From a virus, in IMG/VR virus record IMGVR_UViG_3300000293_000096, positions 1-12,027 of that record: 12,027 nt of DNA. One strand, given 5' to 3'. Positions 1-12,027 of the stretch are shown in pieces; position 1 is the stretch's first letter; every line of letters starts with the position of its first letter. The notes beneath the pieces are model-generated. The model had not been told where the DNA came from. It saw nothing but the letters and a program-made list of their open reading frames with translations, and did no database searches. A program made the position numbers and the translations under genes.

Positions 1-54
1 GGACAAGAAAGAAAACCTTAACAAACAAAAATTTTAAAGTTGCAACGTTGCAAC
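1..54. repeat. Left inverted terminal repeat (ITR), 54 bp perfect
   Basis: Bases 1-54 (GGACAAGAAAGAAAACCTTAACAAACAAAAATTTTAAAGTTGCAACGTTGCAAC) are the exact reverse complement of 11974-12027. Identity stops at position 55 (C here, A expected from the right end). ITRs at both ends plus a protein-primed type PolB imply linear genome ends. Confidence 0.95.
39..54. repeat. Palindrome copy 1 (GTTGCAACGTTGCAAC), inner edge of left ITR
   Basis: Exact 16-mer that is its own reverse complement. It starts 38 bp from the genome end and is followed by 175 nt without a convincing CDS. Confidence 0.9.
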
Positions 55-170
55 CGAGGAAGCCCCGAGAGGAACACAACACTTTGCAACTCTTAAAGAT
101 TTATCAATATGGGTCAATGCACTCATGGAAAAAAGAGAAGCCCTTGAAAATATTGATATAACATTTGATG

Positions 171-2011: not shown

Positions 2012-2037
2012 ACGTGGTAACAAAAAAGTTGCCACGT
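2012..2037 (+). promoter_or_regulatory. Hairpin formed by an upstream arm (ACGTGGTAAC) and the left half of palindrome copy 2
   Basis: ACGTGGTAAC (2012-2021), loop AAAAAA, GTTGCCACGT (2028-2037): 10 bp with one G-T/G-U wobble. It lies 18 nt after the stop of the SSB-like gene. The variant C at 2033 is what allows pairing with G2016. Confidence 0.55.
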
Positions 2038-2043
2038 TGCAAC
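2028..2043. promoter_or_regulatory. Palindrome copy 2, variant GTTGCCACGTTGCAAC, 23 nt upstream of the portal start
   Basis: One substitution (A to C at motif position 6). It is followed directly by SD AAGAGGTGAG and the ATG at 2067. Confidence 0.85.
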
Positions 2044-2066: not shown

Positions 2067-3026
2067 ATGAGTTCAAAAGTAAAGCCGTGGGAGTGGAGTG
2101 AGTTTGGAGTATCAAACATAGACAAAACACAATTGACAAATTATTATTACAAAATGTTGTTAAATCGTGTTATCAATATGTTTACATGGAATAACTTACC
2201 AGATACCATTGACGAGCAAGTAATGAATTTTTGGCTATTTGTAACAGGGCGTGTTGTTTTTACTGAGTTCAACGGAAAACTATATGCACTAAATGGGAAT
2301 TACGGTGGTTATCCTAACGAGTATTATTTGCCTACAGAATTTATTGTTGCTAATCCAATTTTAGGAAGCAAAAATGTAAAGATAGATATTGACGGAGTTG
2401 TAATGTTCAATAGTGATACTGACAAATACCCTACACAAACAATGACAGGCGGTTTATATCCTATATTGACACTTACCGCAAATATGTTAGCTGACTGTGT
2501 AGTAACAATTTCCAGTGCGTTAAAAAATGGCAGAGTACAAACGGCATTTTTGTGTAAAGACGATACAGTGCGAATTGCAGGAGAAAAAGTTCTAAAACAG
2601 TTATATAATGGTAATCCAGCCGTTATGATTGACGACACAATTCTAAATTGTATCACGCCAATAAAAATGGCAGATAATACAAGTGTCGCTACAATTCTAC
2701 AACAGACAGTCGAAACGTATCAATTTTGGCTTGCAAATTTTTACAATTCAATCGGAGTAAATGCAAATTTTAACATGAAGAGGGAACGACTAAACACAGC
2801 AGAGGTCAATATTAATGATAGTGCGTTATTTGTAAATGTTATTAATATGTTGAATAACCGACAGCACGCGGTCAACAAAATTAATGCTATGTTTGGTACA
2901 AATATCACTGTTGAAATTTCCGATGAGTGGAAAGACTTGACAGAGGAAGAACCTACAGAAGAAGAACCTATAGAGGGAGAAAGTGAGGAAGAACCTAAAA
3001 ATGAAAAAGTTGATAACATTGAATGA
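2067..3026 (+). CDS. Portal / upper collar connector protein (phi29 gp10-like)
   Basis: I prefer ATG 2067 (SD AAGAGGTGAG at 2051-2060) over the track's TTG at 2037, which lies inside the palindrome; 319 aa. [40 protein letters not shown] parallels phi29 gp10 [57 protein letters not shown]...[16 protein letters not shown] parallels [20 protein letters not shown]...ACEKINELYGLNVKVK. The C-terminal tail is acidic, as in gp10. Confidence 0.85.
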   Translation: [319 protein letters not shown]

Positions 3027-3678
3027 ATGGGTGGAATTATTCCCCTCTATAAAGACTATTTTTGACAAGGTATCAACAGACTTAAAACTATTTACAATTT
3101 TTACATCTGCTGAGATGTTCTATTATTTTGCAGATAAGTTCGGTGAGCGTGATTTTTACAAGTATTATGATACTGAAAATGTGACAAATAATACTAATAT
3201 GGTGAAGCAGGCAAGCGACTATATAGCATTATATGGAAAATCACACAAATATGAGTATGATAAATTAGTTGATACTCTGTCATTGGAATATAATCCTATT
3301 GAAAATTATTCCATGACAGAAAAAGGAACAGATACAAGAACACCGAACATTACTCAGACAAACAAAGGAGTAAATACAAATACAGTCGGAGTTGATACGT
3401 CAATCACAACAGGAAAAACAACATTTGATAAATCAGACAGTTTTATTAATGACACAAAGACTACAAATACAGGTACAAACACCGATACACAAGATATAAA
3501 CACTACAGTTACAACAGCAGGAAACGAAAAAACTGTGCATGAATTTACAAGAAGTGGCAATATTGGAGTTACAACCTCTCAACAGATGATTGAAAGTGAA
3601 CGACAGTTAGCTATGTTTTCTGTAGTTGATTTATTCGTAAAGGCAATAGCCGATATTATTCTAATTGGTGTATATTAA
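3001..3678 (+). CDS. Putative lower collar / head-to-tail adaptor protein (gp11-position)
   Basis: ATG at 3001 with SD GAGGAAG (2985-2991); it overlaps the portal end by 26 nt; 225 aa. It lies immediately downstream of the portal, as gp11 does in phi29. A central Thr/Asn-rich stretch of about 70 aa (TDTRTPNITQTNKGVNTNTVGVDTSITTGKTT...TTVTTAGNEKT) is compatible with a long beta-hairpin tube insertion. The conserved-looking motif RSGNIGVTTSQQMIESE is near the C-terminus. The call rests on synteny and composition. Confidence 0.55.
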   Translation: MKKLITLNEWVELFPSIKTIFDKVSTDLKLFTIFTSAEMFYYFADKFGERDFYKYYDTENVTNNTNMVKQASDYIALYGKSHKYEYDKLVDTLSLEYNPIENYSMTEKGTDTRTPNITQTNKGVNTNTVGVDTSITTGKTTFDKSDSFINDTKTTNTGTNTDTQDINTTVTTAGNEKTVHEFTRSGNIGVTTSQQMIESERQLAMFSVVDLFVKAIADIILIGVY

Positions 3679-3681
3679 AAA

Positions 3682-3697
3682 GTTGCAACGTTGCAAC
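3682..3697. promoter_or_regulatory. Palindrome copy 3 (exact), 17 nt upstream of the start at 3715
   Basis: Exact GTTGCAACGTTGCAAC, 3 nt after the collar gene stop (TAA 3676-3678), preceded by an A-run and followed by SD GAGAGGA and the ATG at 3715. Confidence 0.9.
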
Positions 3698-3714: not shown

Positions 3715-4011
3715 ATGCAAAAAGTGAGAAGTCCTACATTTGCAGAGAATTACGTCAATCTTGCAAGAGCAGTTGTATTAAATGTAATTACTGACACTTT
3801 GCAACGTAAAGAAGATTTAACACACTATATTTTATATAGTGATGATTTTATGTTTTGGCTATCCCTTGCCAATTGGCTAGATTATGAAAATGTTATTAAA
3901 GATAAATTTTCACGTTTCAAAGGGATTGACAGAACAATAAGAAAAAAATTAAATACTTATTATCGCATAAAAGGCGAGGAAATGAAAGCGAGGAAAAATT
4001 ATGAAAGTTAA
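3715..4011 (+). CDS. Hypothetical protein; positional candidate for scaffolding protein (gp7 position)
   Basis: I prefer ATG 3715 (SD GAGAGGA at 3704-3710) over the track's TTG at 3691 inside the palindrome; 98 aa. It lies directly upstream of the major capsid gene and overlaps it by 11 nt, as phi29 gp7 (also 98 aa) precedes gp8. I recognise no sequence motif. Confidence 0.55.
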   Translation: MQKVRSPTFAENYVNLARAVVLNVITDTLQRKEDLTHYILYSDDFMFWLSLANWLDYENVIKDKFSRFKGIDRTIRKKLNTYYRIKGEEMKARKNYES

Positions 4012-5137
4012 GCAGATTGCAACTATTTTGAATGAAGCTCAGAAAGAAATTGTCGGTGAAACAGCCATAACAACGGAAAGTCTTGAAAATGTTGTTGATA
4101 TGGGTAAGCAGATACTTGAAGCAACAGATGTTGACAATTATGTCCGCAAGCTTATCGATAAAGTCGGACGTATGATTTTTGTTGACAGAGTTTATAACTC
4201 TACAGCCCCCGATATACTTGCCGACGGGTGGGAATATGGTTCAGCAATGCAGAAAGTTCGTTGCGAAATGCCAGATGCAGTTGAGAACGATAGCTGGAAG
4301 CTGACAAGCGGGCAGAGTTATGACCCATTTGTTTTTACCGCACCCGATGTACAGTCAAAATTTTATGACAGCAAGGTAACATATGAAGTGCAGATGTCAT
4401 TTACAGAAATGCAGGTAAAGAGTGCATTTAATTCTCCTACCGAAATGAATAGCTTTTTTGCTATGATTGAAAATCGTATCAGATTTAAGCTCACTCTGTC
4501 AAACGATATACTTAAAACACGCACTATCAATAATCTCATTGCGGAGAAGATACATAGTAAAAACAACGTTGTAAATCTTCTGACAATGTACAATGCAGAA
4601 TTTACAAAAACACTGACCGCAAGTCATGCACTTATGGACAAAGACTTTCTGAGATATGCTATCGGTAAAATAAAGGAGTATATTAAGTATATTCAGCGTC
4701 CGTCAACACTGTTTAATGACGGCGGATATACCACATTCACCCCCGAGAGTGACATGAAAATGGTTCTGCTGTCAAGATTTGTAAATACCGCTGAGGTGTA
4801 TTTGCAGAGCGACACATTCCACAATGACCTTGTAAAGCTGAGTGGCTATTCAGAAGTACCTTATTGGCAAGGTAGCGGAAATAGTGAGAATTTTGATTTT
4901 GCAGAAATTTCAAAAATTAATGTTACAACCGCAAGCGGTAACGCAGTTACTCAGGCAGGCATTATTGGCACTATTTTTGACAAGGACGCTTGTATGATTT
5001 GTAACGCAAATCCGAGAGTTACAAGTATTTACAACCCAAAGGGCGAGTACTGGAATTATTTCTATAAGTATGATGCAAGCTATTTCAATGATACAATGGA
5101 AAATTGTATAGTATTTATAGTCGCAGACGCTGGATAA
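4001..5137 (+). CDS. Major capsid protein (phi29 gp8-like, HK97 fold)
   Basis: SD GAGGA (3990-3994), 378 aa. The C-terminal IYNPKGEYWNYFYKYDASYFNDTMENCIVFIVAD parallels phi29 gp8 [34 protein letters not shown]. The N-terminal IATILNEAQKEIVGETA...VVDMGKQIL is typical of this capsid family. Confidence 0.85.
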   Translation: MKVKQIATILNEAQKEIVGETAITTESLENVVDMGKQILEATDVDNYVRKLIDKVGRMIFVDRVYNSTAPDILADGWEYGSAMQKVRCEMPDAVENDSWKLTSGQSYDPFVFTAPDVQSKFYDSKVTYEVQMSFTEMQVKSAFNSPTEMNSFFAMIENRIRFKLTLSNDILKTRTINNLIAEKIHSKNNVVNLLTMYNAEFTKTLTASHALMDKDFLRYAIGKIKEYIKYIQRPSTLFNDGGYTTFTPESDMKMVLLSRFVNTAEVYLQSDTFHNDLVKLSGYSEVPYWQGSGNSENFDFAEISKINVTTASGNAVTQAGIIGTIFDKDACMICNANPRVTSIYNPKGEYWNYFYKYDASYFNDTMENCIVFIVADAG

Positions 5138-5160
5138 CAGCATAACAAAATAATAGTTAA

Positions 5161-5191
5161 AACGTGGTAACTTGAAAATAGTTGCCACGTT
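5161..5191 (+). promoter_or_regulatory. Hairpin formed by an upstream arm (AACGTGGTAAC) and the left half of palindrome copy 4
   Basis: AACGTGGTAAC (5161-5171), loop TTGAAAATA, GTTGCCACGTT (5181-5191): 11 bp with one G-T/G-U wobble. It lies 24 nt after the capsid stop and has the same composite architecture as 2012-2043. Confidence 0.55.
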
Positions 5192-5196
5192 GCAAC
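5181..5196. promoter_or_regulatory. Palindrome copy 4, variant GTTGCCACGTTGCAAC, 19 nt upstream of the start at 5216
   Basis: Same A-to-C variant as copy 2. ATA/TAT flanks extend the symmetry. It is followed by SD AAGGGGTGA and the ATG at 5216. Confidence 0.85.
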
Positions 5197-5215
5197 TATA
5201 TAAGGGGTGATAAAA

Positions 5216-5709: not shown

Positions 5710-7836
5710 ATGAAATTAAATGAAAACGTTTATGGAACGCCTACAGAAATTGAATTCCATGGTATGCCGATTAAAGTGGTAGGCAATGGCACTTTAAAAG
5801 ATTTAATTAATACCAATAAAATACAATTAAATAAAGAGTTCGACCAATCTATTATATACGCAGTTACTAACAATTCAGCATTAACAAATTATGCCGTACC
5901 ATACGGGAATAGCGTATTAAGACCAAAAATACAAAAATTTACAGCTACTAGCCCCATGGGATTAATAATGTGCTATGGTGGACTAACATCATCAATAGCA
6001 TTGGATTTTATGTACACTGATTATACTGCTCGTAATAATCCTTTTTTACCATATTTATCTATTGGCTATGGTGTAACATCATACGGAAATAACCCATACG
6101 GCGACGGCAATTATACACTTGTAAACCCTCATTTCGTTACTGGATATAAATGGACGGAAGTAAGGTGGTATATCACATTATATGTGACAAACATTTTAGC
6201 AATTACCAATTATAATGCGTTTGACCGCTGGAGTTTTAGAAGAGTATCATTGCAGGACTACAAAGATAATGTCGATAATGTTGCCACCAAAAACCCGCAC
6301 GTTGTCGGTGCAGATATTACACCAGTGCAACATTATATCGGTGGAACATATGAACCTGAATTTTGTCCTACATTCTATACGACTATTAATACATCATCAA
6401 ATAAAATCACCAATGACTATGCAAAAGATGTAAAAAATGATACATTTTATGTAAACCAAAACAGAAAACATTTTTTACTGGGGGCGGATTATCCGGGGCA
6501 ACACACGGCATCATTGCCTATGTATTTTGGAATTGATGATAAACTATTTGAAATGCACTCACATATTTTCAAAGAAGGTAATGACACATTTCAAACATAT
6601 GTGCCACTTTTAAAAGGCAGTCTTGACGATTTAATTAAAACATTTTGTTATTTAGGTATACCAATATCGACCAATCTTCAACACGCCCGAGATGATGATT
6701 TTGATAGTGAATATATTTATACTATGGGTATAAATGACAGCGGACTAACTGACGGAGATTTAAAAAACGGCAGTGATAACAATACAGTACCGCAAATTGA
6801 TTACGCCGATGATATTCTAACTAATAATAATTTTGGTGGTATTGACAGAGTAGACCCAAACAATTATACTGACAAAATAGACCTAAACAAGCCGACACTA
6901 TCAAATGTAAATGTATTTAACCGCAGTTTTGCCGTAACGTCAAATAACGTCAGACAGCTTGCCGATTTTCTTTGGAACGCAGACGAAACAAAATTTAATG
7001 AAATTGTAAAAGGTTTAGCTTTAATGGGTGAAAACCCCATGAACGGCATTATCGACCTGAGGTTATTTCCGTTTGACGTTGCATTAAAAAATTCAGCGAC
7101 AAATGCAGAGCATATTGTTATCGGTAGGACAAATACAGGCGTAAACGGAATAAAATTGACTGAAAATGTAAACAGCTTAATTGATTTAGGTGAATGTACA
7201 TTTTTTGAAAAATTCAAAAATTTTCTAGATTTTGAACCATACACAACAGCTCAATTATATATCCCATATATCGGAGTTGTACCAGTGTCTACGGCTGAAT
7301 TTATGGGGCATAAAATTTCCGCAAAAATGCTAGTTGACTATACGACAGGGGCAGGAACAGCAATTGTTTTTAAAGACGATATCCCATTCATTTACAAAAA
7401 TGGTGTTGTAGGTATAACAATTCCAATGACAGGGACGGACAGTGCAAGTTATGCTAATACAGTTGTGGGCAATGTTGTAAATGGTGCTATCGGTGGTATA
7501 TCTTCAATCGCTAGTAATAATATGGGTGGATTAATTGACAGTACAAAACAACTTTACAGTGGTTTTGCAACAGGGACTAATTATCAAGAAGCGAGTGCAA
7601 GTTCTCCGTCGGTTGCAACGTGGCAACCACAAAAATGTTATTTCATTATTGACAGACCTATTTTAAATGTACCAGATAATTATGGGCGTACTGTAGGCTA
7701 TGCTTGTGAAGTAACAGGAAAACTATCTGATTTTAAGGGCTTTACAGTTGTTAGCAATCCTGAAATTAATTTCAGATGTACAGACAGCGAAAGACAATAT
7801 ATAGTAAATATGTTACAAGGCGGTGTATTTGTATAA
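5710..7836 (+). CDS. Tail knob / distal tail tube protein (phi29 gp9-like C-terminal two-fifths; N-terminal part unassigned)
   Basis: SD GGGGGA (5699-5704), 708 aa. FEPYTTAQLYIPYIGVVPVSTAEFMGHKISAKMLVDYTTGAG resembles the gp9 [24 protein letters not shown]...KLKIQVRGSLG segment. The Gly/Ser/Ala-rich hydrophobic loop GNVVNGAIGGISSIASNNMGGLI resembles the gp9 membrane-active loop GMIGGGISAGASAAGGSALGM. The C-terminal KCYFIIDRPILNVPDNYGRTVGYACEV...DSERQYIVNMLQGGVFV resembles VYVIKKQLKAEY...FHKYGYKIN...DLQEIRTIFDNGITLW. Confidence 0.7.
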   Translation: MKLNENVYGTPTEIEFHGMPIKVVGNGTLKDLINTNKIQLNKEFDQSIIYAVTNNSALTNYAVPYGNSVLRPKIQKFTATSPMGLIMCYGGLTSSIALDFMYTDYTARNNPFLPYLSIGYGVTSYGNNPYGDGNYTLVNPHFVTGYKWTEVRWYITLYVTNILAITNYNAFDRWSFRRVSLQDYKDNVDNVATKNPHVVGADITPVQHYIGGTYEPEFCPTFYTTINTSSNKITNDYAKDVKNDTFYVNQNRKHFLLGADYPGQHTASLPMYFGIDDKLFEMHSHIFKEGNDTFQTYVPLLKGSLDDLIKTFCYLGIPISTNLQHARDDDFDSEYIYTMGINDSGLTDGDLKNGSDNNTVPQIDYADDILTNNNFGGIDRVDPNNYTDKIDLNKPTLSNVNVFNRSFAVTSNNVRQLADFLWNADETKFNEIVKGLALMGENPMNGIIDLRLFPFDVALKNSATNAEHIVIGRTNTGVNGIKLTENVNSLIDLGECTFFEKFKNFLDFEPYTTAQLYIPYIGVVPVSTAEFMGHKISAKMLVDYTTGAGTAIVFKDDIPFIYKNGVVGITIPMTGTDSASYANTVVGNVVNGAIGGISSIASNNMGGLIDSTKQLYSGFATGTNYQEASASSPSVATWQPQKCYFIIDRPILNVPDNYGRTVGYACEVTGKLSDFKGFTVVSNPEINFRCTDSERQYIVNMLQGGVFV
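7612..7627. repeat. Palindrome copy 5, variant GTTGCAACGTGGCAAC (reverse complement of the copy 2/4 variant), inside the tail-knob CDS
   Basis: In frame with CDS 5710-7836. GTT GCA ACG TGG CAA CCA encodes V-A-T-W-Q-P. It lies 208 nt upstream of the next start (7836). Confidence 0.8.
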
Positions 7837-8384
7837 TGAATGAACATTTTGCAAGCGGTTTAACAAATGAACAGTTAAAAGCTGAAATTTTAAGACAAGG
7901 GCGTAAAGCAAATTTACGCCTCAGTCAATTGAAAAAAAGTGGAATGTATAACAAAAACCCTATAATTTCTAGTAAATGGAATACTTTTTTACATGAAAGT
8001 AAGTTTTCAACAAAAAAGAATTTTTTCAAAACAGGTAGTAAAGGCGAAACAAGAACAGAATTGCTAAAACACTATGTGCAGATTAGACAGTTTTTAGGGC
8101 AAAAAACAACAGTAAAAGAAACAAAATCTATTATGTCAAAACACGCAAAACGTTTAAATATTTCTGAAGAAAATGTTGAAAGAGTTTTAACGATTTTCGG
8201 AAATAGTGGCATTGCTGGCAATTTACCTAACAGCGATTTTGTACAGCAATTTATTGCTGAAATGATTGAAAGTGGTTTTAATGATAATGAAATAAATTCA
8301 TTATTGAATACCCTTGAAAATTCAGCGAAAACACAAAATGAAATGTATGATTTAATGCGTGAACAAATGCAAATGTTAGAATAG
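7836..8384 (+). CDS. Candidate terminal protein (TP) for protein-primed replication; otherwise hypothetical
   Basis: The ATG at 7836 overlaps the tail-knob stop (TAATG); 182 aa. It lies immediately upstream of the PolB gene on the same strand, as gene 3 precedes gene 2 in phi29. The basic N-terminus LKAEILRQGRKANLRLSQLKKSGMYN resembles phi29 TP KAEYARLVKNTKAKIARTKKKYGVD, and the C-terminal region is helical and acidic. It is shorter than known TPs (about 230-270 aa). No priming residue is assignable by eye. Confidence 0.35.
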   Translation: MNEHFASGLTNEQLKAEILRQGRKANLRLSQLKKSGMYNKNPIISSKWNTFLHESKFSTKKNFFKTGSKGETRTELLKHYVQIRQFLGQKTTVKETKSIMSKHAKRLNISEENVERVLTIFGNSGIAGNLPNSDFVQQFIAEMIESGFNDNEINSLLNTLENSAKTQNEMYDLMREQMQMLE

Positions 8385-8399
8385 TTGCAACGTTGCAAC
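8384..8399. promoter_or_regulatory. Palindrome copy 6 (exact; extended to a 22-bp palindrome at 8381-8402), 24 nt upstream of the polymerase start
   Basis: ATAGTTGCAACGTTGCAACTAT is a perfect 22-bp palindrome. Its first G is the last base of the TAG stop (8382-8384) of the preceding gene. It is followed by TTTTC, SD GGGAG (8411-8415) and the TTG start at 8424. Confidence 0.9.
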
Positions 8400-8423: not shown

Positions 8424-10562
8424 TTGATAAATGTAAATGATTTTGATTTTGATATTCTAAAAAATAGTAATTTACAAACAGTTACAACCCGAACGAAAGA
8501 TAATAAATATATTGAATATTACAACGCCCCATTTGCATTTGACATTGAAACAAGTTCCTTTTATGACGGAGAAAATAAAAGAGCGTGTATGTATATTTTT
8601 ATGTTTGCATTAAACGGAAATTATGTGTACGGCAGAACATGGAAAGATTTTGACTTTACATTGAATAAATTAAAAGAAGTATTACAATTAAATGAATACA
8701 GAAGAATTATAATATATATTCACAATTTAGGCTATGAATTTCAATTTTTAATCGGTCATGAACGCTTTAAAGACGTTTTCGCAAGAAACGCACGTCACCC
8801 TATTAAATGCACTATGAATGAATGTTTTGAATTAAAATGTAGTTTAATGCTCAGCGGTATGAGTTTAGCTAAAACAGCGGAAGACTTGACAAGCGTAAAA
8901 ATACAAAAACTAACAGGGGATTTGAATTATAAACTTTTAAGAACATGGAAAACAACACTAACAAAAGAAGAATTAGCATATTGTGAGCATGACGTTAAAA
9001 TTTTACATTATTTTATACTTGAAGAAATGACAAAAAATGATAATGATATAACAAAAATACCATTAACTAAAACAGGGTATGTTAGAAAATATTGCCAAAA
9101 CTACATTAAGAAACACACATATTATCCAAAATATAGAGAAAAAATAAAAAAGATAGCCCCAGTTGATAAAGATTTATTTTGTTTATTGCATAAAAGTTTT
9201 ATGGGAGGTTATACCCACGCAAACTATATGTATGTAGGAATGATAATGGAAAATGTTGCTAGTATTGATTTTACAAGTTCATATCCCTCCGTTATGATTA
9301 GAAAAAAGTACCCTATGCAACCATTTACAAAAGTTCACATAAAAGATTTAAAAGATTTTAGATACTGTATTAAAAATTATCCTTGCGTTTTTGAAGTGGA
9401 ATTAACTAACGTTATTGCTAAAAAATGTAATCACATCTTATCAAGGTCAAAATGTTCTGTATGTGATAATGCGGTTGTTGATAATGGCAGAATTGTATCG
9501 GCAGATAGAATATTTACATATTTTACAGATATCGACTTTAAAGACTTTGAGCAATTTTATTCTTATGAGCATTTGTCAATCGGTAAATTTTATACGTCTA
9601 GTTATGGTTATTTGCCTAAACAAATTATAGAATGTGCGTTAAAATTTTACAATGATAAAACAACACTAAAAGGCGTAAAAGGCAAGGAAGTTGAATATTT
9701 AGTCGGTAAAGGTATGTTGAATAGTTTATTCGGAATGTGCGTAACTAATCCAGTCAACGACAATATTATTTTTGACGGAAAAGAATGGAACACGGAAAGA
9801 AAAGATATAACGGAAGCGTTACAAGAAAATTACATAAAGAATAAAAAACAAGTGCTAGTATATCAATGGGGGGTATGGATTACGGCATGGGCAAGACATG
9901 AACTTTTTAAGGGTATTTTGGAAATTGATGAAGATGTTATTTATTGTGATACAGATAGTATAAAATTCTTAAACTATGAAAATTATAAAAACTGGATAAA
10001 TGAATATAATAAAAATTGTATTGATGAGATAAACAAAGCATTAAGCTATTATGAAATTGATTTGAATTTAGCTAAACCTAAAACAATTAAAGGTATTGAA
10101 AAACCTTTAGGAGTATGGGACTTTGAAGGAATTTACACAAGGTTTAAGACGTTAGGTGCAAAACGTTATGCGTATGAGCAAAACGGAAAATTTAATATTA
10201 CTGTTTCGGGACTAAATAAAAAGTGTGCTGTCCCGTATATAGTTGCAACGTTGCAACCGTTTGAATTTTTTGACAATGAAATGTATATTCCGAAAGAGTA
10301 TACAGGCAAAAATACATTGACGTATATTAATGAACCTTACAAAATTATGGTAAAAGACTATCAAGGAAATTATGCAGAAGTGGCGGAAAATAGTTACATA
10401 CATATGGAAGAGCAAGACTACAATATGAGTTTGTCGGAACAGTTTATATATTATTTAATGTGTGGTACAAATTTCGGTAGCGGTGCGAAAGAGCATACAT
10501 TATTTGAAAAAAGTCAAGAATTGGCTACAAATTTCTGGGAGTGTGATTTTAATGAAAAGTGA
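8424..10562 (+). CDS. Protein-primed family-B DNA polymerase (phi29 gp2-like)
   Basis: TTG start at 8424 with SD GGGAG and an 8-nt spacer. There is no in-frame ATG upstream of the ExoI motif. Motifs: ExoI FDIETS; ExoII HNLGYEFQF; ExoIII YCEHDVKIL; motif A DFTSSYPS; motif B KGMLNSLFGM; motif C YCDTDSI (identical to phi29); KxY LGAKRYAY. 712 aa, with room for TPR1/TPR2-type insertions. Confidence 0.95.
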   Translation: MINVNDFDFDILKNSNLQTVTTRTKDNKYIEYYNAPFAFDIETSSFYDGENKRACMYIFMFALNGNYVYGRTWKDFDFTLNKLKEVLQLNEYRRIIIYIHNLGYEFQFLIGHERFKDVFARNARHPIKCTMNECFELKCSLMLSGMSLAKTAEDLTSVKIQKLTGDLNYKLLRTWKTTLTKEELAYCEHDVKILHYFILEEMTKNDNDITKIPLTKTGYVRKYCQNYIKKHTYYPKYREKIKKIAPVDKDLFCLLHKSFMGGYTHANYMYVGMIMENVASIDFTSSYPSVMIRKKYPMQPFTKVHIKDLKDFRYCIKNYPCVFEVELTNVIAKKCNHILSRSKCSVCDNAVVDNGRIVSADRIFTYFTDIDFKDFEQFYSYEHLSIGKFYTSSYGYLPKQIIECALKFYNDKTTLKGVKGKEVEYLVGKGMLNSLFGMCVTNPVNDNIIFDGKEWNTERKDITEALQENYIKNKKQVLVYQWGVWITAWARHELFKGILEIDEDVIYCDTDSIKFLNYENYKNWINEYNKNCIDEINKALSYYEIDLNLAKPKTIKGIEKPLGVWDFEGIYTRFKTLGAKRYAYEQNGKFNITVSGLNKKCAVPYIVATLQPFEFFDNEMYIPKEYTGKNTLTYINEPYKIMVKDYQGNYAEVAENSYIHMEEQDYNMSLSEQFIYYLMCGTNFGSGAKEHTLFEKSQELATNFWECDFNEK
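10242..10257. repeat. Palindrome copy 7 (exact), inside the DNA polymerase CDS
   Basis: In frame with CDS 8424-10562. GTT GCA ACG TTG CAA CCG encodes V-A-T-L-Q-P, just after the KxY motif region. It lies 294 nt upstream of the ATPase start (10552). Confidence 0.85.
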
Positions 10563-11647: not shown

Positions 11648-11682
11648 ATCCCCATGAGTTTTTTCTCATGGGGATTTGTTTT
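11648..11682. terminator. Bidirectional Rho-independent terminator between convergent genes
   Basis: ATCCCCATGAG (11648-11658) pairs perfectly with CTCATGGGGAT (11665-11675), with loop TTTTTT. TTGTTTT follows on the + strand. A-rich sequence (TAAAAAT) precedes the stem, which gives a T-run for the - strand. It starts 5 nt after the ATPase stop and abuts the stop of the - strand gene. Confidence 0.85.
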
Positions 11683-11959
11683 ATATAACGTATTCTCTTA
11701 ATACGGCTTGTATATTTGTCATTGTAGGTTCACAATTCATTCCATAAACATCTATTAGTAAATCACTTATATCATCATATCTTAAATAACCATTTGGCAT
11801 ACGCTCTTGATTATTAAAATACCATTTAACAGATACACACTCAACGACATTCATTATATTGTCGAATATAATCATAATAGGCTCATATAGATTTTTATAT
11901 TTGTTATATCTACCTACAGCCTTTTTAATTCCTTTAATCTCAGTACCATTAATTTTCAT
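11681..11959 (-). CDS. Hypothetical protein; the only minus-strand gene, read inward from the right ITR
   Basis: I prefer the ATG at 11959 (MKINGTEIKG..., SD-like GAAAGGA upstream) over the track's TTG at 11980 inside the palindrome; 92 aa. No motif recognised. It ends at the bidirectional terminator. Confidence 0.65.
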   Translation of the reverse strand: MKINGTEIKGIKKAVGRYNKYKNLYEPIMIIFDNIMNVVECVSVKWYFNNQERMPNGYLRYDDISDLLIDVYGMNCEPTMTNIQAVLREYVI

Positions 11960-11973
11960 AATTTTTCCTTTCT

Positions 11974-11989
11974 GTTGCAACGTTGCAAC
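11974..11989. promoter_or_regulatory. Palindrome copy 8 (exact), inner edge of right ITR, 14 nt upstream of the minus-strand gene start
   Basis: Exact GTTGCAACGTTGCAAC. On the - strand it is followed by AGAAAGGAAAAATT and then the ATG at 11959. Confidence 0.9.
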
Positions 11990-12027
11990 TTTAAAATTTT
12001 TGTTTGTTAAGGTTTTCTTTCTTGTCC
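11974..12027. repeat. Right inverted terminal repeat (ITR), 54 bp perfect
   Basis: The reverse complement of 11974-12027 is identical to 1-54. The inner 16 bp are the GTTGCAACGTTGCAAC palindrome. Confidence 0.95.

Follow-up and report, generated by a model that had tools for sequence, protein, structure and literature searches.

Two of the eight copies of a 16-base palindrome in a small phage genome carry the same altered base, and each lies just downstream of an arm that pairs with exactly that base. Is the resulting structure under selection, and does it act as a switch between two hairpins, as a single RNA hairpin at the end of a gene or as an extended site in DNA? The whole stretch of DNA that was analyzed (the window, 12,027 bases) is almost the entire genome of a small phi29-like, protein-primed podovirus, with nearly all of its genes on the + strand. 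In addition to a packaging ATPase and several genes without an assigned function, it contains the following genes and signals.

816–1484: CHAP endolysin
1656–1994, + strand: g1656, a gene of 112 aa, upstream of site A (below)
2067–3026, + strand: upper collar connector/portal gene
3715–4011: gene whose Shine-Dalgarno sequence lies 5 nt 3' of a palindrome copy (3682–3697)
4001–5137, + strand: major capsid protein gene (PHROG 2006, E = 3.5e-35; stop codon 5135–5137), upstream of site B (below)
5710–7836: 708-aa gene after the capsid gene, probably a tail gene, by position only
8424–10562: type-B DNA polymerase
11648–11675: canonical intrinsic terminator used by the window genome
11681–11959, − strand: minus-strand gene

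The 57-nt terminal inverted repeat (ITR) of the window is only the inner end of ITRs of ~400 nt, and full-length relatives start with AAAGTACCCC. The source phage is tiny and comes from the human gut; related genomes are ~13 kb long. A megablast search of GenBank phages with the whole window found no close relative; among named phages, Acinetobacter phage Phanie, Salmonella phage astrithr and Amedibacillus phage AD70P2 come nearest, with capsid identities of 31–45%. The comparisons below rest on 30 close relatives (18 from IMG/VR, 10 from human-gut metagenomes and 2 more from Logan and IMG/VR), and the capsid gene in relatives matches Pfam Phi29_MCP.

The palindrome, GTTGCAACGTTGCAAC, is a tandem of the self-complementary octamer GTTGCAAC and occurs eight times in the window at one mismatch or fewer, against 0.07 copies expected.

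39–54: exact copy at the inner edge of the left ITR; no arm
2028–2043, + strand: copy 2, variant GTTGCCACGTTGCAAC (A6 to C, with C at 2033)
3682–3697: exact copy, 5 nt before the Shine-Dalgarno sequence of gene 3715–4011; no arm
5181–5196, + strand: copy 4, variant GTTGCCACGTTGCAAC (A6 to C, with C at 5186)
7612–7627: mirror-variant copy GTTGCAACGTGGCAAC, inside the 708-aa gene 5710–7836; no arm
8384–8399: exact copy before the DNA polymerase gene; no arm
10242–10257: exact copy inside the DNA polymerase gene; no arm
11974–11989: exact copy at the inner edge of the right ITR, before the minus-strand gene 11681–11959

The arm, ACGTGGTAAC, lies at 2012–2021 and again at 5162–5171, 6 and 9 nt upstream of the two variant copies (site A and site B, respectively), and pairs base for base with GTTGCCACGT at 2028–2037 and 5181–5190, one U·G (2018·2031) included. 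The initial annotation had described this pairing and its recurrence at the second site, and all of its coordinates check. It was equally right that the A-to-C change at 2033 supplies the base that pairs with G2016, for which G5166–C5186 is the counterpart at site B, and that the same change weakens the palindrome's own hairpin, by a C×U mismatch at the sixth pair of its stem. The exact copies do lack an arm, as it had noted: the best anchored pairing at the six remaining copies is 3–5 nt, compared with 12 and 11 nt at the composite sites, and in 20,000 flank shuffles the gain of an arm of at least 10 nt by at least two of the eight copies arose once. That the variant base marks the composite copies was overstated. 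Position 6/11 of the motif is variable (C or G; on the mirror side C or G) in arm-less copies, including those of the ITRs and the copy at 7612: the latter carries the mirror image of the A6-to-C change in the window, and ITR copies in relatives also bear the C, in each case without an arm. The hairpin needs a C at motif position 6, and the motif tolerates a C there because position 6/11 is soft.

Both elements proved larger than first described, with an inner helix of 11–12 bp enclosed by an outer helix of 6 bp. Their parts are as follows.

2002–2007, + strand: site A outer helix, 5' strand AATCGG, which pairs with 2043–2048 in both the minimum free energy (MFE) fold and the RNAalifold consensus
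2011–2021, + strand: site A arm GACGTGGTAAC, the 5' strand of the inner helix, in which G2016 partners C2033
2022–2027, + strand: site A loop, A6
2028–2038, + strand: site A inner helix, 3' strand, the left 11 nt of palindrome copy 2
2039–2042, + strand: 3' side of the site A internal loop, within palindrome copy 2 (base 2043 starts the outer helix)
2043–2048, + strand: site A outer helix, 3' strand CCGATT
5153–5158, + strand: site B outer helix, 5' strand ATAGTT, which begins 16 nt after the capsid stop
5161–5172, + strand: site B arm AACGTGGTAACT, the 5' strand of the inner helix, in which G5166 pairs with C5186
5173–5179, + strand: site B loop
5180–5191, + strand: site B inner helix, 3' strand
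5194–5199, + strand: site B outer helix, 3' strand AACTAT

The internal loops are 3×4 in one site and 2×2 in the other. The hairpins begin 8–16 nt past the stop codons of genes 1656–1994 and 4001–5137, and the translation signals that follow them are unpaired: the portal Shine-Dalgarno sequence (2052–2060) and ATG (2067) downstream of site A, and those of the next gene (5203–5209 and 5216) downstream of site B. All six pairs of the site B outer helix are invariant among 16 distinct sequences. Relatives show one U·G, one A×C and one terminal A×A change in the outer helix of site A, which is less well supported than the inner helix.

The initial annotation had interpreted each element as a structural switch between two mutually exclusive hairpins, and the thermodynamics of both conformers speak against it. 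The MFE values for sites A and B are −19.6 and −20.4 kcal/mol (z-scores −4.9 and −6.0), and the full intergenic regions fold at −23.5 and −23.1 kcal/mol, respectively. The palindrome's own hairpin reaches only −5.0 (A) and −6.1 (B) kcal/mol (range −5.0 to −6.6) and is 17–18 kcal/mol weaker than the arm hairpin, so the two folds are far from the near-equal energies expected of a bistable element; at equilibrium, the probability of the palindrome's own pairs lies between 5e-12 and 9e-12 in site A and is 4e-9 in site B. A single uncompensated change in the helix costs 6.6 kcal/mol, and the variant pair as G–C is 2.4 kcal/mol stronger than its U–A state. As the arm is 5' of the palindrome, it is transcribed first and pairs first. 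Nor are both folds conserved: in relatives the arm helix is 100% paired, compared with 80.7% for the palindrome's own helix, the sixth pair of which is never formed at site A, and the palindrome helix decays in two sister genomes (L247 and L279; see below). The composite element is not a two-state switch, and no second conformer is needed, since the hairpin stays in the sister genomes where the palindrome half decays.

The arm hairpin itself recurs throughout the clade. The same fold, at −18 to −23 kcal/mol, is present in all 18 + 16 distinct sequences from the relatives, and RNAalifold predicts both folds unguided (−22.0 kcal/mol for site A and −21.2 for site B). In the inner helix of site A, all 220 of 220 cells across 20 distinct sequences hold standard pairs, with 7 of the 11 pairs varying. 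The changes at site A are all transitions, with pairing retained through G–U on the + strand; they yield the arm variants ACGTGGCAAT, ACGTGGTAAT, ACGTGGTGGC, ACGTGGTGAC (opposite GTTGCCGCGT) and ATGTGGCAAT, and one pair is C–G in 8 sequences, U·G in 10 and U–A in 2. As variation within each pair is limited to one side, a shuffle control gives no information at this site. At site B, the arm AACGTTGCAAC accompanies the consensus A, with a U–A pair, in 12 of the 16 distinct sequences, and the arm AACGTGGTAAC accompanies the C, with a G–C pair, in the other 4 (the window included); pairing is 100%. This G–C/U–A exchange is confined to one lineage, in which the A and B arms are identical, and it could be a single copy-over of the site A hairpin rather than stepwise compensation.

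Variation of another kind is found outside the helices. The A-run loop of site A is 4–8 nt long among relatives (ACAAA in the sister lineage), the loop of site B differs in both sequence and length (TTGAAAATA, TTAAATA, TCAAAAAA, CCCTAAAAA(A)), and loops span 4–9 nt overall, with transversions and indels in the unpaired flanks. The variable length of the site A loop fits a hairpin loop, not a fixed protein–DNA spacing. The two strands are also unequal: the − strand would turn the G·U wobbles into C·A, and in 14 of the 18 site A sequences the + strand forms the more stable fold. Both sites keep GCAAC, the right half of the palindrome, without any change in the 30 genomes with the palindrome system; as the hairpin does not need it, each copy is presumably still read as the motif.

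The sister genomes separate the hairpin from the palindrome. L247/L248 and L279, with 84–86% identity in the upstream gene, are without the multi-copy palindrome, and only a relic of the in-coding copy is left in them; a search of viral contigs with the sister palindrome GTTGCCACGTGGCAAC gave matches only in unrelated high-GC phages. L247 and L279 nevertheless retain AACGTGGTAAC-ACAAA-GTTACCACGTT at site A, perfectly paired, with the former motif base G4 changed to A, so that the U·G pair is now U–A, and in L279 the right half of the palindrome is lost altogether. Because these genomes keep the hairpin without the palindrome system, the hairpin, not the palindrome, is the selected unit at site A. 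At the composite sites the arm and the variant base never vary independently among the relatives, and no distinct sequence of the 30 has an unpaired position in the inner helix; the view taken in the initial annotation, that the pairing between the arm and the left half of the palindrome is a selected structure and not drift, is thus supported by the comparison.

The same annotation had placed the two elements at the ends of an SSB-like gene and the capsid gene. The positions are correct, and the SSB-like label is unproven. No match to g1656 was found in Pfam, PHROG, NCBIfam or PDB sequences. An AlphaFold model from the single sequence was unusable (pLDDT 41.6); one built from a 20-sequence alignment (pLDDT 79.5) shows the order strand-strand-strand-helix-strand-strand, which is of the OB type. 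Compared with the PDB, this model gave no significant structural match, and its weak matches include the SSB-like PrgE, so that g1656 is, from the model, a possible SSB. For site A, the abundance of the upstream protein is an assumption. In distant relatives g1656 lies directly upstream of the capsid gene. In the window it is preceded by a conserved non-coding gap of 170 nt (1485–1655) that contains a promoter-like sequence and looks like a promoter region; such a putative promoter would make g1656 and the site A hairpin a self-contained unit.

Other lineages place hairpins at the same position. In every other lineage examined, a strong hairpin separates the capsid gene from the next ribosome-binding site. 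Salmonella phage astrithr, L019, L110 and L246 have a canonical terminator there, on the mRNA strand; in L243, L247 and L279 the strong hairpin has an A/U-rich tail behind it; in the window clade, the composite hairpin occupies this post-capsid slot. The window also contains a third intercistronic hairpin.

182–208, + strand: CACACTGAGTT-TTAAT-AACTCAGTGTG, an 11-bp stem without a U-tract

It is unrelated in sequence to the composites and adjoins a Shine-Dalgarno sequence downstream. At ~−17 kcal/mol it is found in 27 of 30 clade genomes, with no match in L001, L018 and L105; its apical pair is U–A in some genomes and A–U in most, a compensatory exchange, and L014 has one G·U.

We consider it moderately probable, judging the function from position, that the composite element is a conserved mRNA stem-loop with a 3'-end or stabilizing role for an upstream gene whose product is needed abundantly. 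The + strand stem-loop would be of ~47 nt, with a 6-bp outer helix, an internal loop, an 11–12-bp inner helix and a variable A-rich loop, an energy of about −22 to −23 kcal/mol and a 3' strand provided by the left 11 nt of a palindrome copy. It would mark or protect the 3' end of the upstream message (that of g1656 at site A and of capsid at site B), whether by blocking 3' exonucleases, as a processing site or as a leaky terminator, and the upstream, presumably abundant proteins would thereby be made at higher levels than those of the downstream portal and tail genes. Among the roles suggested in the initial annotation (attenuator, processing site or competitor for factor binding), 3'-end formation or processing is the best reading, and the two-state switch falls away. 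An element acting at the RNA level is favored, with the proviso that G·T wobbles would also be tolerated in the + strand single-stranded DNA displaced during protein-primed replication.

The stem-loops are stable, on the sense strand and at the end of a transcriptional unit, as in an intrinsic terminator. The stems are followed by GAAAGAGG at site A and ATAAGGGG at site B, with no U-tract at either, and a terminator scan of the + strand called neither composite hairpin; as the U-tract is lacking, they are not canonical intrinsic terminators. In phi29, a terminator inside gene 4 is said to favor production of the abundant proteins p5 and p6 (PMC11476376). Like the post-capsid terminators of related small podoviruses, the hairpin of the window lies between the capsid stop and the next Shine-Dalgarno sequence and is of similar strength; it differs from them in the absent U-tract and in its 3' strand, which is a copy of a genome-wide palindrome and not a private sequence. 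The RNase III processing sites of T7 (R0.3 and R1.1 among them) and the stem-loops that stabilize 3' ends within operons, such as the REP elements between malE and malF, are intercistronic. The hairpins of the window may be likened to these, as they are intercistronic, irregular, interrupted by an internal loop, without a U-tract and placed before a ribosome-binding site, and by this analogy the expected effect would be a differential stability of the upstream message.

The RNase III comparison can be taken literally: in this reading, a more specific mechanism that competes with a plain barrier or leaky terminator, a cut by the host enzyme would separate the cistrons and leave a protective hairpin on the upstream message, in the manner of the T7 R sites. 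The double-stranded RNA of RNase III sites extends over about two turns, and an internal loop is often present. The conserved succession of lower stem, internal loop and upper stem, without a U-tract and ahead of a Shine-Dalgarno sequence, at both sites is consistent with such a target, and the plain palindrome hairpins, at 6–9 bp, would be too short for the enzyme. The helix is nonetheless shorter than in typical RNase III substrates, with 17–18 real base pairs (~20 bp equivalents) at the short end, the lower limit of about two turns; the internal loops are unlike between the sites; and the third hairpin (182–208) is a simple stem of 11 bp. We regard a dedicated RNase III site as unlikely.

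A further possibility is that the arms have no function and are decaying leftovers of partial duplication or recombination at a palindromic repeat with a period of 8. As the motif is a tandem of GTTGCAAC, partial copies pair by construction; moreover, the copies look like recombination points, in that the motif marks the ITR boundary, a segment of ~520 bp between two copies is missing from the window, and terminal duplications occur in some relatives. Against this stands the perfect pairing in 36 distinct sequences that differ by transversions and indels in their loops, internal loops and flanks. In the arm helix every kind of change preserves pairing, compared with 2 of 7 kinds in arm-less copies; on the motif side, the G4-to-A change improves pairing once the palindrome system is gone; and unrelated hairpins hold the same position in other lineages. 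We judge a functionless origin distinctly unlikely.

The arm and the palindrome could instead act in DNA, as an extended or double operator of three half-sites that gives stronger or cooperative binding of a dimer at the start of the structural genes. A second, degenerate motif copy (GTTAAAACGTGGTAAC, 5156–5171) indeed has the arm of site B as its right part, partial-plus-full motif copies recur in unrelated phages (L053, L027, L075 and L043), the portal gene of the distant L110 clade is preceded by two copies of that clade's own palindrome, and the conservation of the loop bases ACGT, equal to that of the stem, fits recognition of duplex DNA. The spacing between arm and core, however, ranges from 4 to 9 bp within the clade and is not fixed; the arm variants ACGTGGTGGC and ATGTGGCAAT leave the motif consensus with G–U kept on one strand only; and genomes that lack the palindrome system still have the hairpin. 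Such an operator is, in our estimate, improbable.

What the palindrome itself does is a separate matter. It would work independently of the hairpin and is most likely recognized as double-stranded DNA by a sequence-specific dimeric factor, since its central ACGT is conserved as strongly as its stem and the arm-less copies are not selected for RNA pairing: substitutions in their stems break their own hairpin in 5 kinds and keep it in 2. The dyad symmetry of the 16-mer is perfect, centre included, and is conserved in many copies, as would be expected of an operator for a dimer. The two copies inside long genes are kept bar a few changes (that at 7612–7627 save for one synonymous variant), and the neighboring synonymous sites vary. 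Flanking stems at the arm-less copy at 8384, viewed by eye in relatives, keep their pairing only in part and are not used as evidence.

Scans of small ORFs against Pfam, PHROG and NCBIfam found no DNA-binding domain, and blastp and profile searches found no protein shared between the window clade and 72 unrelated motif-bearing contigs. Unrelated viral contigs with several copies of the identical GTTGCAACGTTGCAAC range in GC content from 0.34 to 0.66. A sigma-70 promoter is rejected as an explanation of the palindrome, as there is no −35/−10 pair at a consistent spacing in the window and no asymmetric extended consensus in unrelated phages with 8–17 copies. A host regulon is likewise rejected: a scan of genome contigs (596 Gb) for the 16-mer gave mostly single matches in roughly chance number, apart from one Treponema contig, in which the exact 16-mer occurs 4 times, and one Prevotella contig, in which 2 copies lie near each other.

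Two known systems invite comparison. The phi29 genome has five parS sites, which are used through the host Spo0J/ParB (PMC2731898). Like the motif of the window, parS is a perfect palindrome of 16 bp, present in several copies per small protein-primed genome, free in orientation and tolerated inside genes. It is not the same sequence: counted position by position, GTTGCAACGTTGCAAC has 6 of 16 identities to the parS consensus TGTTNCACGTGAAACA, and the window contains no site within 3 mismatches of parS. Cluster K mycobacteriophages carry the start-associated SAS, a multi-copy repeat by translation starts, about half of the copies of which have an extra inverted repeat (ESAS) with a spacer of 4–13 bp (PMC3203893). 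SAS resembles the palindrome of the window as a short multi-copy repeat by start codons with an optional inverted repeat and a variable spacer. It differs in being asymmetric and including the ribosome-binding site, where the window has a perfect palindrome upstream of that site; in that the ESAS inverted repeat is a separate element, whereas one arm in the window is the repeat itself; and in that the hosts and phage types are unrelated.

Other phi29-like lineages have palindromes of their own just before ribosome-binding sites: GTCCATAYRTATGGAC in 17 copies (L110–L114), TTCGGTTGACCGAA in 4 copies (L246) and, in a distant relative (L280), canonical parS in 6 copies. The palindrome sequence was not found in any paper in a literature search, and a review of phi29-like phages (PMC11476376) mentions neither palindromes nor hairpins. 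A speculative extension of these observations, to which we give little credence, makes the palindrome the DNA or RNA target of a clade-specific trans factor, with the composites as toggles and with different lineages having adopted different palindromes for the same job. The factor would punctuate nearly every gene in phages of ~13 kb; at the composites, the overlapping RNA hairpin would either compete with its binding or gate it, and over time this would toggle between formation of the upstream message end and expression of the downstream structural gene. In a broader version, tiny phi29-like lineages would each have taken a different palindrome of 14–16 bp, one of them the host parS, with the identical GTTGCAACGTTGCAAC adopted by unrelated phages.

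The weakest reading, very improbable in our view, is a regulated switch between the arm hairpin and the palindrome hairpin that either works as an attenuator or competes for a factor recognizing the palindrome hairpin: bases 2028–2038 and 5181–5191 take part in both folds, which are formally exclusive, and the intact right half of the palindrome suggests that the copy is probably still used, but the occupancy of the palindrome hairpin is 1e-9 to 1e-12, the C variant weakens this minor fold further beside an arm that is made first, the sister genomes keep the arm hairpin only, the Rfam 15 covariance models give no match anywhere in the window at E ≤ 1, and the arm-less copies, not being selected for an RNA hairpin, do not indicate a factor that binds one.

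If the composite is indeed a 3'-end or stabilizing stem-loop of the mRNA, one short sequence would be under two constraints, as a repeated palindromic site and as a strand of an mRNA hairpin, and the conflict between them would be solved at the one tolerant position of the motif. It would also offer a testable handle on how phages with tiny, protein-primed and nearly unidirectional genomes set the ratio of abundant to scarce proteins. The palindrome system may be a more valuable observation than the hairpin: lineage-specific palindromes before ribosome-binding sites, the use of parS in one lineage and a 16-mer shared with unrelated phages together point to a regulatory or host-hijacking system that has not been described.

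Comparison with L001, L004, L009 and other relatives places both ends of the window (1-57 and 11971-12027) inside ITRs of about 400 nt, and the full-length relatives start with AAAGTACCCC, in the style of phi29. The relatives' ITR carries an extended -10 element (TGGTATACT) about 55 nt upstream of its copy of the 16-nt palindrome; in the window, ITR identity ends precisely at the final base of that palindrome, position 54. In the relatives a first gene of about 520 bp (MENII...) separates the palindrome of the ITR from a second copy (378-915 in L001, 277-815 in L002), and at 39-60 of the window the ITR copy instead runs straight into the sequence that follows the second one. This junction represents either a deletion by recombination between the copies or an assembly collapse. 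The terminal modules are duplicated in L014, L018 and L099, with the motif at their borders. The other elements considered here in the window are as follows.

Features of the window outside its terminal module
182-208, + strand: third conserved intercistronic hairpin, CACACTGAGTT-TTAAT-AACTCAGTGTG, about -17 kcal/mol
2943-3008: direct repeats at the 3' end of the portal gene, three imperfect units of 24 nt (GAGGAAGAACCTACAGAAGAAGAA)
7612-7627: palindrome copy within the 708-aa post-capsid gene 5710-7836, coding VATWQ
10242-10257: palindrome copy within the DNA polymerase gene, coding VATLQ
11648-11675, both strands: intrinsic terminator of canonical type, bidirectional, with an 11 bp stem and a T-run on each strand

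The two copies inside genes, one of them in what is probably a tail gene (5710-7836), are read in the same frame and keep neighbouring copies of the motif less than about 2.4 kb apart. Across 29 relatives the in-gene motif is kept save for a few changes, while adjacent synonymous sites vary. The direct repeats in the portal gene specify an acidic C-terminal tail of its product, EEPTEEEP, and overlap the beginning of the next ORF.

Gene 1656-1994 is preceded by a conserved non-coding gap of 170 nt (1485-1655) that holds a promoter-like TTGTTA-17-TTATAT. In the relatives this gap contains an additional palindrome copy (L005), a 24-nt duplication (L008 and L009) or a long poly-A run (L018 and L105), the last of which is probably an artefact.

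Repeated palindromes are also found in other lineages. The clade of human-gut contigs L110-L114 (capsid identity 41%) carries about 17 copies of its own 16-nt palindrome, GTCCATAYRTATGGAC, placed on both strands 0-3 nt before ribosome-binding sites; the portal gene is preceded by two of them, and one lies 3' of the canonical terminator that follows the capsid gene. The same positions ahead of ribosome-binding sites are occupied in a distant relative, L280, by six copies of the canonical parS TGTTTCACRTGAAACA, including a tandem pair (3355-3388, 4411, 7088, 7125, 9994). A single parS is present in Amedibacillus phage AD70P2 (L122, 8620), and L246 has four copies of TTCGGTTGACCGAA (1889, 4070, 7579, 9790). 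No repeated palindrome was found in astrithr, L019, L243 or the sister genomes L247 and L279.

The window's exact palindrome, GTTGCAACGTTGCAAC (core TTGCAACGTTGCAA), recurs in 4-17 mostly intergenic copies in unrelated viral contigs (L095, L053, L088, L038, L027, L043, L075 and the Treponema MAG contig L142) whose GC content ranges between 0.34 and 0.66, and these share no detectable protein with the window clade. A-runs and T-runs flank the motif in the Treponema contig, resembling a bidirectional terminator.

The hairpin at 182-208, present in 27 of the 30 clade genomes, lacks a U-tract on the + strand and lies directly upstream of the ribosome-binding site of gene 230-433; its apical pair is A-U in most relatives and U-A in some, with one G.U in L014. 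The terminator at 11648-11675 lies where the ATPase gene and gene 11681-11959 converge, and its canonical T-runs indicate that the host does use U-tract terminators.

Finally, the age of the variant C at 2033, in the composite element that follows gene 1656-1994, is addressed by L249, a 611-nt contig with 64% identity to the window in this gene. A perfect palindrome, GTTGCCACGTGGCAAC (594-609), adjoins the stop codon of its homologue, with both soft positions (6 and 11) altered to give a C-G pair. Judged from this sequence, the C at 2033 could therefore be a long-standing variant of the motif and not a recent adaptation.
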